Shown: positions 15,123 to 56,853, counted from the first letter of the stretch. The stretch: 64,000 nucleotides of DNA from Candidatus Levyibacteriota bacterium (GCA_017991775.1 JAGOPV010000002.1:2360-66359); one strand, 5' to 3'. The notes: generated by a model not told the origin, from the letters alone. Numbers and translations are program-made.

Positions 15123-15185
15123 CATGTCATTCTGAATTTATTTCAGAATCTTAATAAAGATGCTGAAACTAGTTCAGCATGACAT
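15123..15185 (+). promoter_or_regulatory. double-hairpin palindromic element overlapping the UDG start codon
   Basis: CATGTCATTCTGAATTTATTTCAGAATC-12nt-GATGCTGAAACTAGTTCAGCATGACAT. The outer ATGTCAT/ATGACAT arms are inverted repeats. The ATG of ATGACAT is the annotated UDG start. A TATAAT at 15185-15190 follows. Confidence 0.55.
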
Positions 15186-21783: not shown

Positions 21784-21811
21784 TTGACATTTCCCAGATT
21801 GAAGCTATAAT
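21784..21811 (+). promoter_or_regulatory. consensus sigma70-type promoter (TTGACA-16nt-TATAAT)
   Basis: Perfect -35 TTGACA (21784-21789) and -10 TATAAT (21806-21811) with a 16-nt spacer, about 260 bp upstream of the 16S 5' end. Confidence 0.6.
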
Positions 21812-22022: not shown

Positions 22023-22067
22023 TCTCATTTCGACAGCAGTTTAATGGAGATAATACTCCGTTAGATT

Positions 22068-23660
<1,593 letters not shown>

Positions 23661-23952
23661 TAATTTTTTCTTCGTTCTCGCAAGAGAAGTGAAAATCTAA
23701 ATTAGATGTGGGGAAGACATAAAACTTGTGTTAAACAGGTACGTCTCGTATCTGGGTTAATCAAGGAGATGTGTAAAATGACACCAAGCGGAGTGAGTAG
23801 CGCTTGAGTAATCTCGTTATCTCGATTTATCGAGAGTCGAGTAATAGACACTTGTGTCGATTACTTGGCCACTGAGAGATTACATAAAATCTACTCTCGC
23901 CTTTCCTACCACTTCGTAACTAGTCAATCCCGCTTAGCGGGACGAGCAAATG

Positions 23953-23977
23953 ACCACCCTAATGGGTGGTTTTTTTG
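23953..23977 (+). terminator. rho-independent terminator downstream of 16S
   Basis: ACCACCC-TAAT-GGGTGGT followed by TTTTTTT. Confidence 0.6.
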
Positions 23978-24104
23978 TGGGAAATTTGTGATTTAGGCAC
24001 GAATCCTTTATACTTCACCTCAGTTATTTTTTCTCTGGTCACAAGCTGAGAGCTTGCGCGACTCACAATTGGGTGAGTAGCGTGGCTCTCGTACGAGAAA
24101 GGGA

Positions 24105-24596
24105 ATGAAAATGTCTGTTGGAAGAGCATTTCTTCCAGTCCCAAGAGGGGACAGCCGATTCTATCTGGGAAGCCAGCAATGCGAGGAGTTGCTCGCGAGC
24201 ATCAATAAGGAGTTCGCTGAAGTAAAGATCCCCTTTGTGGGATTTGGAGTTCGCCAGTGGGCAACGGGGTTCACTGTTGACCTGCCTGGCTTTACCAGGT
24301 CTGGCATTCGTAAGACGCTGGAGATCAAGTGTGAGTTTGATGAGGGGTATTTGCCCTCAATTGGCCCTTCGGCCGTTATTGTTCGGTCAGACATATCGGT
24401 TCGGACTCTTCATTTCAGAAGGGAGGGAGATTTCTTTGACGAAGTCATCTGGAAGGGCCTGGATCTTTGCCTGATTGACAGGGAACAAGAACGGGCTCGG
24501 TATCGTCCAATTACGCATAATGGCATGATCTTGTTCCATTTGGGTCCAGACGTGTCACCTGGGAACTATGTGCCCCAACTCATCCTGCCGATGTAG
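24105..24596 (+). CDS. hypothetical protein, GC-rich (foreign-looking) ORF
   Basis: 163 aa. Local GC is well above the window average. RBS AAAGGGA upstream and a TATACT -10 at 24007-24012. Its own terminator follows. No recognisable motif. Confidence 0.4.
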   Translation: MKMSVGRAFLPVPRGDSRFYLGSQQCEELLASINKEFAEVKIPFVGFGVRQWATGFTVDLPGFTRSGIRKTLEIKCEFDEGYLPSIGPSAVIVRSDISVRTLHFRREGDFFDEVIWKGLDLCLIDREQERARYRPITHNGMILFHLGPDVSPGNYVPQLILPM

Positions 24597-24671
24597 AAGG
24601 GGATCCAGTCTAAGCACCGCAAGGGTTGCAGCACCTTGGTATTCGCTGGTCGCAAGCGCGACCGTTCTCGA

Positions 24672-24714
24672 AGCACCATGGGTCGTTGCACATCAACCCC
24701 CATGGTGCTTTTTC
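24672..24714 (+). terminator. rho-independent terminator (11-bp stem) after the GC-rich ORF
   Basis: AGCACCATGGG-loop-CCCATGGTGCT followed by TTTT. Confidence 0.55.
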
Positions 24715-24785
24715 CATATCTAGCTTCTTGCGTTTGTTCTAGCTTCGAAGCTATGGTAAAATCCAAGCAGGCTAATTCTTTACGT

Positions 24786-24857
24786 GGCGCGGTGGCGAAG
24801 CGGTAACGCAGGGGTCTGCAAAACCTCCATGCACGGGTTCGATTCCCGTCCGCGCCT
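24786..24857 (+). tRNA. tRNA-Cys (anticodon GCA)
   Basis: Cloverleaf by eye: acceptor GGCGCGG/CCGCGCC, D-arm GCGAAGCGGTAACGC, anticodon loop CTGCAAA, T-arm ACGGGTTCGATTCCCGT. No encoded CCA. Confidence 0.75.
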
Positions 24858-24897
24858 CTCAAAATTCTTTCAGAATTTTGGCAGAACTTAAATTTAT

Positions 24898-25296
24898 ATG
24901 GAATTAAATAATAAATTCGATAATTATGAGTCAGATGATGGGTATAGTGAGAAGAAGCTTGATAAGAGTACTGATCTTGTAAGTGGGCAGTGGCTAGATC
25001 TGAGTAAGGGTGCGAGTGCTTTGGTCAAAGCTCCAACAAAGCAGAGTGTCTCGGGTGGAAAAAGTAGGCTGCAAAAGCTTGTTGAGTATTCACAGTCACT
25101 GATGCGAGAGATCGATGGAAAAGTGAATGAATATGGGGATGAAGCACGTGAGAATAAGGATCTTTCGAGGCTGGCAAAGGAGATAGAGAAGCTTCAGTCA
25201 AAGCTGCATACGATTCTTAGATCAATCCAGTTTGAGCAGAAAGGCACGCTAGATATCACGAAGCTTCCCAAAGAGGCACAAGATTTGGTAAAATAG
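24898..25296 (+). CDS. hypothetical coiled-coil protein
   Basis: 132 aa, Lys/Glu-rich and helical. No recognisable motif. Confidence 0.3.
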   Translation: MELNNKFDNYESDDGYSEKKLDKSTDLVSGQWLDLSKGASALVKAPTKQSVSGGKSRLQKLVEYSQSLMREIDGKVNEYGDEARENKDLSRLAKEIEKLQSKLHTILRSIQFEQKGTLDITKLPKEAQDLVK

Positions 25297-25355
25297 CCTT
25301 CTAGTAGTTTTGCAGACGTCTGCGGGACTGCAGCACTGCATATATGCAGTAAAAA

Positions 25356-25427
25356 GGGTCGTTAGTTCATTGGTAGAACGCTTCACTGATAATGAAGAGG
25401 TGGATAGTCCGATTCTATCACGACCCA
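25356..25427 (+). tRNA. tRNA-Ile (anticodon GAT)
   Basis: Acceptor GGGTCGT/ACGACCC, D-arm GTTCATTGGTAGAAC, anticodon stem CTTCA/TGAAG with loop CTGATAA, T-arm GATAGTCCGATTCTATC, discriminator A. Confidence 0.75.
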
Positions 25428-25466
25428 CCCCGCTTAGCGGGGTGATGACCAGCTTAGCTGGTCCAC

Positions 25467-26825
25467 CTACGCTTTTAGTTTCATCCAGAATTCGTCTTGG
25501 CGGCAAAGTTCTTTCGCATCCTCTTTATTCTTAAGAATCATCTTTACAGCTTCTTCTAGAAAGATTGTATTTTGTGAGCCCTTTGCGAGCACGATAGCAT
25601 TTTTGACTAAATTATCTTTGAGATATTCACCTGCGCGAGTTGGTCCATCAAACCAGCGTATTTCTTTAAAGCTACTTTCTTGTGTCTGAACGATAGGCAA
25701 GATAAATTCTCTGGTCAGAGGGCCAACGAGATAAAGGTAATCCACGACTCCAAGTAGCATCTGTGCGACAGCCTCATGTTCAATCTTTGCTTCTTCACCA
25801 AGTTCTCGCATATCACCCATGAGAAATAGTATTGGTCTACCCGTGTCTTTTTTAAGTGTATCAATCAGTAAGAGAAATGCCTCGATAGAGACTTTGGACG
25901 CATTATAGGTGGAGTCGATAATGTCAGAGTTGTTGATCCCTGCAAGAAGACTTGAGCGGCCTTTTGGAGAGACATAGTTAGTCTCAAGAGATGTTTGGAT
26001 TTGAGACAGGGACAGGCCTAATTCAAGTGCTGCCAGAATACTGGCTGCGAATACTTCTCGATATTCTTTTGGAAGAATAAGCTTTGGGAAGCTCAAAGTA
26101 ATTAGAGTTGGTTTGGCGTTATGAGTCTTCACATATAGGCCAAAGTTCGTTCCATCAAGCGTGACAGTGTGGACTCCATATGAAATATCATTGGTGCTCT
26201 TGCTTCCAAAGGAGAGAAGCTTGGTGGAGGTGGGTGTTTTTTGTTTGATGATTTCTTCTAAGTTCTTATCATCTGCGTTATATATCCCGACTTTGCAGCC
26301 TGACTTAGTAATTATTTTTGTGTCCTCTTCAGCAATCTTCCTGACAATCATGTCTAGTTTCTCCTGCTCGCCGATTGCTGATTGCCGATTGCTGAGTGCT
26401 TTCTCAAATTGCATAGTATGAGTCGCTGTAGCGTTGAGTGAAATGGCAATTGTTGGCTTCAAGATCGTGAGCAGGTACTCCATATTTTTAGGTGGATATG
26501 GGTCATCTATTCCCATCTCTGCGATCAGATGCGTTGTGCCTTTTAGAAAATTGCCTTGAAGTGGAGATTTGGCCAACATTTTTGCCCAGTCCAGCGTGGA
26601 GTACGACTCTGGCTTCATGCCTAAAATCCCAAGTGGAATACCGGTCTCTGAGTTGCCAATTGACTGTGTAGGAAAGTGGTCTTTAAGGATCGCCTCAAGT
26701 GCGTTGCGAGTGGATGATTTACCTACTGATCCAGCTATGCCAATGATGGCTGGCTTGTGTGTTTCAAGGGATCGCTTTGCGAGAGTCCTTAGATATGAGA
26801 GAGTAGCATTCTTGGCAAGATTCAT
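25467..26825 (-). CDS. murF: UDP-N-acetylmuramoyl-tripeptide--D-alanyl-D-alanine ligase (MurF-like Mur ligase)
   Basis: Mur ligase P-loop GIAGSVGKSS, GRSS...IDSTYNASKVS (MurF GR...IDDSYNANP) and LMGDMRELG (MurF LGDMLELG). Confidence 0.65.
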   Translation of the reverse strand: MNLAKNATLSYLRTLAKRSLETHKPAIIGIAGSVGKSSTRNALEAILKDHFPTQSIGNSETGIPLGILGMKPESYSTLDWAKMLAKSPLQGNFLKGTTHLIAEMGIDDPYPPKNMEYLLTILKPTIAISLNATATHTMQFEKALSNRQSAIGEQEKLDMIVRKIAEEDTKIITKSGCKVGIYNADDKNLEEIIKQKTPTSTKLLSFGSKSTNDISYGVHTVTLDGTNFGLYVKTHNAKPTLITLSFPKLILPKEYREVFAASILAALELGLSLSQIQTSLETNYVSPKGRSSLLAGINNSDIIDSTYNASKVSIEAFLLLIDTLKKDTGRPILFLMGDMRELGEEAKIEHEAVAQMLLGVVDYLYLVGPLTREFILPIVQTQESSFKEIRWFDGPTRAGEYLKDNLVKNAIVLAKGSQNTIFLEEAVKMILKNKEDAKELCRQDEFWMKLKA

Positions 26826-38548: not shown

Positions 38549-38613
38549 TGTCATGCTGAATTTAGTTCAGCATCTCCCAATTATTAGATCCTGAATCAAG
38601 TTCAGGATGACAT
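38549..38613 (+). promoter_or_regulatory. double-hairpin palindromic element overlapping the glyA start codon
   Basis: TGTCATGCTGAATTTAGTTCAGCATC-13nt-ATCCTGAATCAAGTTCAGGATGACAT. The ATG of ATGACAT is the annotated glyA start. A TATACT box lies at 38531-38536. Confidence 0.55.
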
Positions 38614-44251: not shown

Positions 44252-44668
44252 TTATCCATCGTTTCGTGGTAGTCGGTTCTCCCAACCTGTGACCACGAAG
44301 GTGCCATTGGCAACCTTCAGTCGCATGTAGTCGTAGAACAGTCCACCCGGGTCACGAAGACCAGTGTAGACGACGAACACATTGACATCGCCGTTTCGGT
44401 CGACAGAAAGCGATGCGATAGCGATCACTGTGACATCCGAGAACGTCGTAGTGGGCACATACCGGATTGCATCCTCGGCGAACATTGGCGTCCAGAGGGA
44501 CGCATCATTGGTCGCGAGGGTGTCGAGGACTTCGGTGACGAACACAGTCACGCCTGGTGCGTAGTCTGTGTTCGAACTTGGTCCCGTTGTTGATGCCATT
44601 GCCGGCGTCGCGAACGAGACAACTGCGATTGCGATTGCCACAAGTGTGGCCGAAATTCGATTCTTCAT
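44252..44668 (-). CDS. GC-rich secreted hypothetical protein (possible NTF2/SnoaL-like fold), likely horizontally acquired
   Basis: Signal peptide MKNRISATLVAIAIAVVSFATPAMA. GC is well above the window average. Confidence 0.45.
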   Translation of the reverse strand: MKNRISATLVAIAIAVVSFATPAMASTTGPSSNTDYAPGVTVFVTEVLDTLATNDASLWTPMFAEDAIRYVPTTTFSDVTVIAIASLSVDRNGDVNVFVVYTGLRDPGGLFYDYMRLKVANGTFVVTGWENRLPRNDG

Positions 44669-47800: not shown

Positions 47801-48127
47801 TGTCATGCTGAACTTGTTTCAGCATCTAAATCTAAAAGTCCTGGATTCAAATTTTTTATTAGGTTAAGTTTCCATTCCCTTCGCCAGTTCTTCAGCTGTT
47901 TTTCTCTAGCTATTGCGCTGGTAATATCACTCGTCTCCTCAAAGTACACTAATTTTTTAAGATTATATTTTTTGGTGAAACCATCAATGAGTTCATTCTT
48001 GTGCTCATATACTCTTCGTTCAAGATTATTTGTAACACCAATATAGAGAACTGTATTTGTTGCGTTTGATAATATATAAACAAAGTAGTTATTCATTCGA
48101 GATCCTGAAACAAGTTCAGGATGACAT
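47801..48127. mobile_element. GIY-YIG gene cassette bounded by the double-hairpin palindromic element (candidate mini mobile element or homing cassette)
   Basis: Left end TGTCATGCTGAACTTGTTTCAGCAT (47801-47825). Right end CCTGAAACAAGTTCAGGATGACAT (48104-48127). These have the same architecture as the gene-less copies at 15123 and 38549. The last 9 codons of the GIY-YIG ORF are encoded by the left hairpin. Confidence 0.5.
47803..48096 (-). CDS. GIY-YIG nuclease family protein
   Basis: YFVYIL...LYIGVTNNLERRVYEH...Y..KK is a classic short GIY-YIG domain. Confidence 0.75.
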   Translation of the reverse strand: MNNYFVYILSNATNTVLYIGVTNNLERRVYEHKNELIDGFTKKYNLKKLVYFEETSDITSAIAREKQLKNWRREWKLNLIKNLNPGLLDLDAETSSA

Positions 48128-56267: not shown

Positions 56268-56853
56268 GTCATTGCGAGCGATCTAATTTATTCTTCGAAC
56301 GAAGTGAGAAGTATATTCAGTGTAAATATTGGTTCTCGCTTGGCTCGAACAATAATGTATGCTTCGAACTTGTCCCGCTAAGCGGGACTGAGTGAGAAGT
56401 ATGATATATGAAACAATGGAAATGGTTTGTTTACATTCTTGAATGCAAGGATGGACTATATTACACAGGAATAACTTGGAATGTTGCAATTAGAATGGAG
56501 CAACATGCGTCCGGAAAAGGTAGCGCATTCACCTCAAGACATGGTTTTAAAAAACTGCGGCATGTTGAAGAATTTAGCAATCTGGCTCAAGCCCGAGAAA
56601 GAGAAACTCAATTAAAAGATTTTAGTAGGAAGAAAAAAGAGGCTTTATTTAATATTGATTAGTTCTCACTATGTTCGAACAATAATTTACTTTTGAACGG
56701 AAGATTTATTCTTCGAACGAAAAGAGAAGTAAGATTTGGATCAGCAATAGGTAGTTCTCACTTCACTCGAACAATAATTTATTCACAAGTGGAATTATTC
56801 TTCGAACTTGCCACGCTTAGCGGGGCGAAGTGAGAAGTTTCGCTCGCAATGAC
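56268..56853. mobile_element. 586-bp GIY-YIG element with 14-bp perfect terminal inverted repeats and modular internal subrepeats
   Basis: TIR-L GTCATTGCGAGCGA (56268-56281). TIR-R TCGCTCGCAATGAC (56840-56853). Three copies of a 27-nt repeat (rGTTCTCrCT...TCGAACAATAAT). Three copies of TTATTCTTCGAAC. Three or four copies of GTGAGAAG. Inverted CCCGCTAAGCGGG/CACGCTTAGCGGGG hairpins flanking the ORF. Inserted between gnd and proS. Confidence 0.6.
56408..56662 (+). CDS. GIY-YIG nuclease family protein
   Basis: WFVYILECKDGLYYTGITWNVAIRMEQH...R..E GIY-YIG core. 84 aa. Confidence 0.75.
   Translation: MKQWKWFVYILECKDGLYYTGITWNVAIRMEQHASGKGSAFTSRHGFKKLRHVEEFSNLAQARERETQLKDFSRKKKEALFNID

Follow-up and report, generated by a model that had tools for sequence, protein, structure and literature searches.

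Bacterial loci that join a constant N-terminal part to a swappable C-terminal part are generally known from CdiA-CT/Rhs-CT toxins and type IV pilins, and diversity-generating retroelements (DGRs), which are common in bacteria of the Candidate Phyla Radiation (CPR), vary a localised C-terminal stretch of small proteins. Variable DNA is also found as genomic islets at tRNA genes, and the repetitive extragenic palindromic (REP) sequences and bacterial interspersed mosaic elements (BIMEs) of proteobacteria are short GC-rich imperfect palindromes between genes. Unlinked rRNA genes have been reported for CPR and other lineages (Brewer et al., bioRxiv 10.1101/705046). We compared with these systems a locus in a 64-kb stretch of DNA, referred to here as the window, from a metagenome-assembled genome of Candidatus Levybacteria (CPR), annotated as KBC15 in NCBI. 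A GC-rich orphan gene of 161 codons, called here the cassette gene, lies there with tRNA-Cys and a second protein gene, ORF132 (ORF, open reading frame), between a 16S rRNA gene and tRNA-Ile. The original prediction for this DNA had read the segment 23929–25450 as one foreign insertion in a canonical rrn operon, bounded by hairpins with a GCTTAGC core.

The reading we favour, and hold to be fairly probable, is that of separate transcription units in a row, with an orphan cassette that swaps alleles and hairpins that were inserted independently. The 1.7 kb from 16S to tRNA-Ile would be such a row and no single insertion. The orphan gene is a new family with known kinds of behaviour, its allele mosaic being absent from the earlier prediction, and the locus is no new mobile element.

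Divergent alleles of the cassette gene

The window and L001, a contig from the same species (synonymous divergence, dS, of 0.078 in murF), are 98–100% identical in a sliding comparison from 16S to codon ~25 of the cassette gene, its promoter and leader included, and again from ~12 nt past its stop codon through the tRNAs, ORF132 and beyond. Within 24180–24610 the identity is 35–60%, and the core so delimited spans ~430 bp. The proportion of synonymous differences (pS) in the core is 0.81, which is saturated, and that of nonsynonymous differences (pN) is 0.42; outside the core, pS for the same pair is 0.06 in ORF132. The constant arms that flank the core include ATGTCTGTYGGAAGAGCATTTCTTCC and GCACCATGGGTCGTTGNACANCAACCCCCATGGTGC. 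Since fast protein evolution cannot yield saturated synonymous sites, these observations point to replacement of the core by a distantly diverged allele through recombination.

Contigs of relatives were taken as those that bear homologues of the 163-aa protein (the cassette gene read from 24105) and of ORF132. L001 is arranged as 16S-ORF166-tRNA-Cys-ORF132-tRNA-Ile-murF(-)-folC-... and has both hairpin sites. L003 and L011 cover the ORF163 region and carry the same allele as the window. L002 and L005, which come from one sample, and L010 belong to a different species (murF dS 1.28, on contig L005) and hold the ORF, ORF132 and both tRNAs, the GCTTAGC hairpins being absent at the sites covered. 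L004, L006 and L009 are distant, with ORF132 homologues at 37% identity; they have the ORF132 homologue, tRNA-Ile and murF, as well as tRNA-Cys if the contig extends that far, and no hairpins. DNA-pattern scans for further relatives returned one chance match (L007) and the L004 contig again from GTDB, and one contig, L009, without upstream information from JGI. The L004/L008 contig, CAYRJZ010000009.1, is titled 'uncultured Gammaproteobacteria bacterium' yet is syntenic with the window (16S trailer, tRNA-Cys, ORF132 homologue, tRNA-Ile, murF, folC and a cohesin-domain gene) and is probably mis-binned.

The cassette gene falls into at least three deeply diverged allele classes that are still homologous to each other: A (window, L003 and L011), B (L002 and L010) and C (L001). 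Allele A shares 51% of its amino acids with B and 36% with C, though A and C share a species background, and the trees of alleles and of flanks conflict. Three or four independent assemblies contain allele A, and two contain B-type alleles. Within allele A, too, the gene has diverged more quickly than ORF132 beside it: the window and L003 differ by a pS of 0.12 and a pN of 0.043 in the ORF, and by 0.027 and 0, respectively, in ORF132.

The cassette gene in all likelihood encodes a real protein. Its frame stays open at 161–166 codons across three allele classes that share 32–51% amino acid identity in the variable core, indels between alleles are multiples of three, and the ratio of nonsynonymous to synonymous divergence (dN/dS) is 0.02–0.27 over the first 28 codons. 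The true start codon is probably that at 24111 (MSVGR...), which matches the NCBI 161-aa call (KBC15_00600, on the same 91-kb NCBI contig as KBC15_00610) and the homologues, and which has a Shine-Dalgarno-like AAGGGA ahead of it. A non-coding RNA was also considered; Rfam searches at the gathering threshold and at E ≤ 10 gave only the 16S end and two tRNAs, and this reading was rejected because the ORF stays open in all alleles.

A mosaic of this kind could also arise in assembly, if conserved rRNA and tRNA flanks were joined to the ORF of another organism. Chimeras form readily next to rRNA genes in assembly, a single contig is the source of allele C, and L002 is uneven: its positions 1–930 match window 22999–23925 (16S 3′ half and trailer, ~900 nt) at 100%, identity is ~86% from the hairpin-A indel on, and elsewhere the L002/L005 genome is ~82% identical to the window (murF/folC). 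The break from 100% to 86% may mark either a recent rRNA gene conversion between species that ended at the hairpin or a chimeric contig. Against an assembly artefact as the source of the alleles, L001 is near-identical to the window on both sides of the core (660 nt to the left and 5 kb to the right at 97–100%), and because these flanks bear private indels in the tRNA-Cys and tRNA-Ile leaders, L001 is a strain of its own, not that of the window with foreign DNA spliced in. Moreover, the junctions lie inside the coding frame, which stays open, and B-type alleles come from two samples with matching flank variants. We thus regard the artefact as improbable.

A target of a DGR or another hypermutation system is what a hypervariable C-terminal stretch with sharp borders, in a small protein of a CPR genome, might suggest. 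No repeat of 24100–24780 and no paralogous silent copy of the cassette gene were found in the window, and among its 42 ORFs scanned with Pfam, both spacer ORFs included, there is no reverse transcriptase, integrase or transposase. The changes include indels and are saturated at all codon positions over ~430 bp, unlike an adenine-templated stretch of ~100–150 bp. With indels among the changes and neither template repeat nor silent copy in the window, the DGR was rejected, and we find hypermutation barely credible here.

A further comparison is with CdiA-CT/Rhs-CT toxins and type IV pilins. The locus shares with these the sharp switch from conserved to diverged sequence within one frame, deep alleles in near-identical backgrounds and the conflict between allele and flank trees. 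It differs in that its variable parts are mutually homologous, that the protein is just 161 aa long and that no co-varying immunity gene follows, the next gene being tRNA-Cys. In the 161-aa protein we found no signal peptide, pilin-type hydrophobic N-terminus, toxin domain or immunity domain, and it has no match in Pfam, PHROGs, PADLOC or the PDB sequences.

Searches among 5.8 billion proteins gave three homologue clusters only, and a hidden Markov model search of 1.84 billion representative proteins added nothing real. One extra profile match, P0004, was discarded as an artefact, a sum of many 0–3-bit matches to a low-complexity repeat. Another, P0005, is at motif level only: hhalign aligned residues 116–153 with its repeats at 58% probability over 38 columns. 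From their sequence alone, with no assignment by a tool, we take these repeats to be Cna-B/SpaA-like surface-protein repeats, of the prealbumin-like beta-sandwich type; the resemblance is a lead and not an assignment. The gene has no match in phages, plasmids (tblastn), IMG/VR, GTDB representative genomes or JGI contigs. As far as these searches reach, the family appears restricted to one narrow clade, with no relatives outside it. Motifs shared across the alleles are VDLP, W.GL.LCL.D, HNG.I and PG.Y.PQ.ILP. Two AlphaFold models are poor (predicted local distance difference test, pLDDT, of 52.7 and 41.3) and have only an N-terminal helix with beta strands after it in common; with these poor models, Foldseek gave no PDB match at E ≤ 0.001.

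We propose that strains exchange the alleles through homologous recombination with resolution in the constant flanks, and that diversifying or frequency-dependent selection may keep them. The protein would be cytoplasmic, its N-terminal part a constant 'handle' and the remainder a variable, beta-rich module for recognition, and could have a role in conflict or recognition involving phage, host or kin. A more specific version is a long shot: the 161-aa protein would be the specificity component of an undescribed CPR recognition or conflict system, its handle docking to a conserved partner and its module being swapped between strains with the constant leader and 3′UTR as recombination arms, and the hairpins would be footprints of an unusually small, ~19-nt mobile palindrome, possibly mobilised by the small GIY-YIG nuclease, in whose element two copies lie.

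A lineage-specific cassette among older genes

The extent of the lineage-specific DNA is given by the distant relatives. In L004 the 16S trailer and terminator abut the tRNA-Cys promoter, and window positions 23983–24728 are missing, with clean junctions and no remnant; in L006 an unrelated ORF (L006 1–237) precedes the tRNA-Cys promoter. tRNA-Cys and/or the ORF132 homologue with tRNA-Ile stand beside murF in L004, L005, L006, L009 and L010. Because the distant relatives carry it without any hairpin, the block tRNA-Cys-ORF132-tRNA-Ile-murF(-) is ancestral. Judging from the comparison with L004, L006 and L009, only ~23983–24728 is lineage-specific, and the tRNAs and ORF132 are old residents. 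ORF132 is 100% identical to hypothetical protein KBC15_00610 [Candidatus Levybacteria bacterium], and its composition is native. The 21-mer AAGCTTCCCAAAGAGGCACAA at the tRNA-Ile promoter is invariant in nucleotide sequence among homologues whose proteins are only 37% identical; the final ~10 codons of ORF132 overlap this promoter (25265–25296).

These comparisons sort the claims of the original prediction. The GC-rich ORF, tRNA-Cys, ORF132 and the hairpins lie where it had placed them, and tRNA-Ile, said to be about 1.7 kb from 16S, begins (25356) 1,696 nt after the 16S end (23659). The 'foreign-looking insertion' shrinks to the one-gene cassette, which is lineage-specific and has a foreign-like GC content, the remainder of the segment being old. 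The comparison of the spacer among relatives, proposed as a check, likewise gave a divided answer, with the cassette absent from L004 and the block present in distant relatives. The prediction had held that relatives with the same genes in the same spacer at native GC would speak against it; L001–L003 do have the cassette gene in this place, and its GC is not native.

The description of a GC-rich, self-contained gene is borne out. The cassette ORF has a GC content of 0.506 against 0.419 ± 0.037 for 59 window ORFs, and a third-position GC content (GC3) of 0.555 against 0.366 ± 0.061 (z 3.1); its codon-usage z, the check that had been proposed, is −3.4. All alleles are GC-rich and are compositional outliers too. 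The gene has a predicted promoter and a predicted terminator with a perfect 12-bp stem (24671–24682/24699–24710) followed by T5, in place of the 11-bp stem first described. Covariation in the 3′ untranslated region (3′UTR) is uninformative because no variable pairs occur among the alleles. At the borders of the cassette we found no repeats beyond chance-level 10–11-mers.

A second compositional outlier lies at 44252–44668 on the minus strand, a 138-aa ORF with a signal-peptide-like N-terminus. With a GC of 0.547, a GC3 of 0.60 and a codon-usage z of −3.9 it is more extreme than the cassette ORF. It has no Pfam match, and ~570 nt of non-coding DNA lie upstream of it.

Coordinates of the features discussed are collected in Table 1.

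Table 1. Features of the 16S-to-murF region and hairpin copies at the GIY-YIG gene, in window coordinates
Feature	Position	Strand	Remarks
Promoter-like site of 16S gene	21784–21811	+	TTGACA-16-TATAAT, 12/12 match
16S rRNA gene, unlinked	22067–23659	+	Rfam, 1359 bits
16S 3′ trailer	23660–23927	+	recognisably conserved in distant L004; 100% identity to L002
Hairpin A	23928–23942	+	TCCCGC-TTA-GCGGGA; part of ~18-nt insertion, missing in L002 and L004
Intrinsic terminator of 16S unit	23952–23976	+	GACCACCC-TAAT-GGGTGGT + T7; 8-bp GC-rich stem; in L002 and L004
Whole one-gene cassette (promoter, 5′UTR, ORF, 3′UTR/terminator)	23983–24728 (approximate)	+	absent from L004
Promoter-like site of cassette gene	23986–24014	+	TTGTGA-17-TATACT; identical in L001, nearly so in L002
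Structured 5′ leader, conserved	24021–24110	+	~90 nt; minimum free energy −34.3 kcal/mol, z −3.35
Cassette protein gene, 161 aa (163 aa from 24105)	24111–24596	+	MBP6882037.1, hypothetical protein KBC15_00600, orphan
Variable core (codons ~26 to stop, plus ~12 nt)	24186–24610	+	35–60% nucleotide identity to L001; at least three allele classes
Constant 3′UTR, 126 nt	24597–24722	+	three conserved (invariant) hairpins, the last being the terminator
tRNA-Cys promoter region	24728–24762	+	TTGCGT ... TGGTAAAAT; kept in L004 and L006
tRNA-Cys(GCA)	24786–24858	+	ancestral neighbour
ORF132 (KBC15_00610), 132 aa	24898–25296	+	conserved Levybacteria protein
tRNA-Ile promoter-like site	25265–25294	+	TTCCCA-18-TAAAAT with TG
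tRNA-Ile(GAT)	25356–25429	+	Rfam and tRNA calls
Two tandem hairpins	25426–25463 (25426–25444; 25447–25463)	+	39-nt insertion between tRNA-Ile and murF stop codon; missing in L004, L005, L006 and L009
Mur-ligase (MurF-like) gene, convergent	25467–26825	-	synteny anchor shared by every relative
Hairpin copy, central base A	56372–56388	+	left of GIY-YIG gene, within TTCGAAC...GTGAGAAG unit
Hairpin copy, one stem mismatch	56811–56825	+	right of GIY-YIG gene; missing in near-identical strain L013

The 16S gene contains an AT-rich, ORF-free insertion of ~140 nt at ~22850–22990. Insertions of this kind are common in CPR 16S genes. The 16S terminator, which holds the first 'ATGACCA', is ancestral as far as its occurrence in relatives tells. 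No canonical rrn operon is interrupted here. Rfam found one small-subunit rRNA and two tRNAs only and no 23S rRNA in the window, that is, within 22 kb upstream or 40 kb downstream of 16S; a terminator stands between 16S and the tRNAs, and the tRNAs near 16S have promoter-like sites of their own. Since the 16S gene stands alone, no operon spacer existed to invade. As in the unlinked rRNA genes of CPR/Patescibacteria and small-genome bacteria (bioRxiv 10.1101/705046), a lone 16S gene has its own promoter and terminator, with a nearby tRNA-Ile under its own predicted promoter. The locus differs from these in that the remnant operon order, 16S and then tRNA-Ile, is kept, that tRNA-Cys and two protein genes separate the pair, and that neither tRNA-Ala nor 23S comes next.

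That the whole of 23929–25450 (ORF, tRNA-Cys, ORF132 and tRNA-Ile) is a single mobile module bounded by direct repeats of 'hairpin + ATGACCA' is very improbable and largely refuted. It had in its favour identical 13-mers with ATGACCA at both ends, the foreign composition of the ORF, and the shift in L002 from 100% to 86% identity exactly at hairpin A. However, tRNA-Cys-ORF132-tRNA-Ile-murF occurs with neither hairpin in L004, L006 and L009, and every relative examined has tRNA-Cys, ORF132 and tRNA-Ile beside murF; in L002 the ORF is present and hairpin A is not, and in L005 the block lacks the hairpins that follow tRNA-Ile. The cassette ends relative to L004, at ~23983 and ~24728, are away from the hairpins, the first ATGACCA is part of the ancestral terminator of the 16S unit, ORF132 has native composition, and the 16S gene is unlinked. 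A shared mobile module is further contradicted by the Pfam scan, in which no ORF matched an integrase, transposase or reverse transcriptase. About two-thirds of the 42 scanned ORFs match housekeeping families, among them MreB/C, PBP2, DprA, TopA, ThyA, DHFR, SHMT, S2, RRF, G6PD, ProRS and DnaX, and the remainder are unmatched. As for an integrative element, the two ORFs within 23929–25450 have no significant Pfam match, and the repeated sequence is a hairpin and not a tRNA.

The cassette gene itself may be older than its distribution suggests. On that view it was ancestral at this site, the L004 lineage lost it, and constraint, not a foreign origin, accounts for the high GC. The empty site is seen in one outgroup only, and the slot seems often to be occupied, because L006 has an unrelated ORF 5′ of its tRNA-Cys promoter. 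Every allele is GC-rich, which argues for a maintained property over a recent import, and both the leader and the 3′UTR are strongly structured. Against this, the profile search of 1.84 billion representative proteins found no homologue outside the narrow clade, and the L004 junction is clean, with no remnant. We therefore consider an ancestral gene unlikely.

Small accessory genes and tRNA fragments cluster near tRNA-Cys and tRNA-Ile in the clade. L004 has lineage-specific ORFs at 395–595 and 1307–1720, a 66-aa membrane-like ORF after tRNA-Cys and a 137-aa ORF after tRNA-Ile; the small accessory ORFs of L004 and L006 have no homologue in the window. In the window, an inverted 25-nt copy (80% match) of the tRNA-Cys D/anticodon-arm region (24800–24824) lies just 5′ of tRNA-Ile at 25307–25331 and overlaps a perfect 12-nt palindrome, GCAGACGTCTGC. 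In relatives, partial tRNA-Ile duplications with hairpin inserts occur at L001 1906–1959, L005 632–686 and 760–880, L010 972–1015 and L004 1221–1236. They include 12 duplicated nucleotides of the tRNA 5′ end with TCGTCCAGAGGACGA and TCAGCCTTTGGCTGA behind them. In L010 the second hairpin gives way to unrelated DNA; L005 has a degenerate tRNA-Ile copy 3′ of the gene, and L004 a 16-nt copy of the tRNA 3′ end 130 nt downstream. A ~50-nt insert in L001, L002 and L010 duplicates the tRNA-Cys 5′ end. The hairpin inserts of the relatives have no copies in the window. The neighbourhood suggests a hot spot for small accessory genes. It resembles genomic islets at tRNA genes in the variable small ORFs and partial tRNA duplications around tRNA-Cys and tRNA-Ile; it differs in that the cassette lies 5′ of the tRNA-Cys promoter and not in a tRNA 3′ end, and has neither an integrase nor tRNA-derived direct repeats at its ends.

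GCTTAGC hairpins and the GIY-YIG element

Exact copies of the 13-mer CCCGCTTAGCGGG lie at 23929 and 25429; the copy at 56374 has another central base, and that at 56812 has one mismatch. By chance, 0.01 matches are expected. Hairpin 25449–25461 (CCAGCTTAGCTGG) is a fifth member of the GCTTAGC-core family. All five copies, a number that holds for the 64 kb only, are non-coding and 85–100% identical. Presence varies among relatives at three of the four sites. Hairpin A is missing from L002, the pair after tRNA-Ile from L005 and all hairpins from L004, L006 and L009, and L013 lacks the copy at 56812, where a plain TTCGAA..GAAGTGAGAAG unit remains. It thus appears that the hairpins, which the original prediction had placed as bounds of an insertion, are separate and independent strain-variable insertions of 18–39 nt and not cassette ends.

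Several details of that prediction changed with closer inspection. ATGACCA does follow the hairpins, at 23950 and 25445, and at both sites it forms the 5′ arm of a second hairpin, namely the 16S terminator (23952–23976) and GACCAGC-TTA-GCTGGTC (25447–25463). The two 'hairpin + ATGACCA-hairpin' pairs are alike, the ATGACCA being ancestral terminator sequence at the 16S site and part of the inserted 39 nt at the tRNA-Ile site. The hairpin said to recur inverted in the GIY-YIG element is present at 56374; because the 13-mer is otherwise palindromic, this copy differs by its central loop base alone. Ordinary terminators after many genes, which were to count against a link with insertions, are not what was found, since the 64 kb hold six GCTWAGC cores, five of them within extended palindromes. 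The supposed parallel with hairpin + ATGACAT elements also dissolved. The (GAT)CCTGAAnCAAGTTCAGG hairpin family is followed directly by ATGACAT at 15150–15185, 38575–38613 and 48090–48127; the ATG at 15179 is the start codon of the UDG gene and that at 38607 of the SHMT gene, and these hairpins are unrelated to the GCTTAGC hairpins.

From their sequences and distribution, the GCTTAGC hairpins behave like a small, recently spread REP-like palindrome family. Like REP/BIME palindromes, they are short, GC-rich, imperfect intergenic palindromes at gene 3′ ends, present in several near-identical copies that are at times in tandem (25426–25463) and that vary between close strains. They differ in number (five copies in 64 kb) and size (13–19-nt stem-loops, 18–39-nt insertions), in that no RAYT-type (REP-associated tyrosine transposase; Y1 HUH) transposase was found in the window, and in that two copies are nested in repeat units around a GIY-YIG gene. 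Such tiny palindromic insertions would have spread recently in the species, some entering the GIY-YIG element and others settling at the 3′ ends of the units of 16S and tRNA-Ile. Once transcribed, they would give stable 3′ stem-loops; at the two spacer sites the hairpins fold stably (z −4.8 to −5.9).

The same hairpins could instead have arisen or been selected locally, as RNA 3′-end or termination structures or as binding sites of a palindrome-recognising protein. At two of the sites a stable-RNA unit has the hairpin at its 3′ end, each time with a second one beside it, the 13-mer is a near-perfect palindrome of the kind expected for a dimeric binding site, and the copy number is low. Opposed to this, identical 13–15-nt sequences at unrelated sites, two of them in GIY-YIG repeat units, point to copying from a template, and the hairpins are clean 18–39-nt indels relative to close relatives. 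Since no T-run follows the GCTTAGC hairpins, they are not terminators themselves; the terminator scan lists 23952–23971 and none of them. GCTNAGC is neither avoided nor enriched overall, with 14 sites observed and 12.9 expected in a test for restriction-site avoidance. A local origin is a possibility to which we give some weight, although we doubt it; REP-like insertion is the reading we retain.

The GIY-YIG element (56268–56853) has an 84-aa gene at 56408–56662, is bounded by GTCATTGCGAGCGA/TCGCTCGCAATGAC and is built of repeated TTCGAAC...GTGAGAAG units. The GIY-YIG protein is the sole mobile-type gene of the window, and two hairpin copies lie in its flanking repeat units. Two other assemblies (L012 and L013) have the element at the same locus, between 6PGD-like and ProRS genes; L013 is without ~35 nt that include the right-hand hairpin. 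The 6PGD-like gene beside the element has no exact-protein record.

Weight and meaning of the locus

Several points weigh against the favoured reading. Alleles B and C are each seen on one or two short metagenomic contigs, for which chimeric assembly is possible, and the 100% identity of L002 through the 16S 3′ half and trailer is suspicious beside ~82% elsewhere. Selection on the core is beyond measurement because its synonymous sites are saturated. With one outgroup, gain of the cassette in the clade and its loss in the L004 lineage are indistinguishable. Mobility of the hairpins is read from presence or absence and sequence identity only, with no enzyme or target-site rule found. Because both structure models are poor, the putative 'beta-rich recognition module' depends on predicted secondary structure and a single weak profile match (58%, 38 columns).

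For CPR bacteria, a long distance between 16S and tRNA-Ile need not signal an insertion into an rrn operon, since 16S is unlinked and its neighbours are old. Mini-hairpins that vary between strains, together with the tRNA fragments, mark the edges of stable-RNA genes as hot spots of small-scale rearrangement. Because rRNA-adjacent regions tend to be missing from binned genomes, such edges are poorly sampled. CPR genomes are tiny, and for most of their lineage-specific genes no function is known. A gene confined to a single species group, with its own transcription unit and with several ancient alleles kept in strains that are otherwise near-identical, is likely to act at a conflict interface with phage, host cell or kin, which makes the cassette gene a reasonable first target for experiments.

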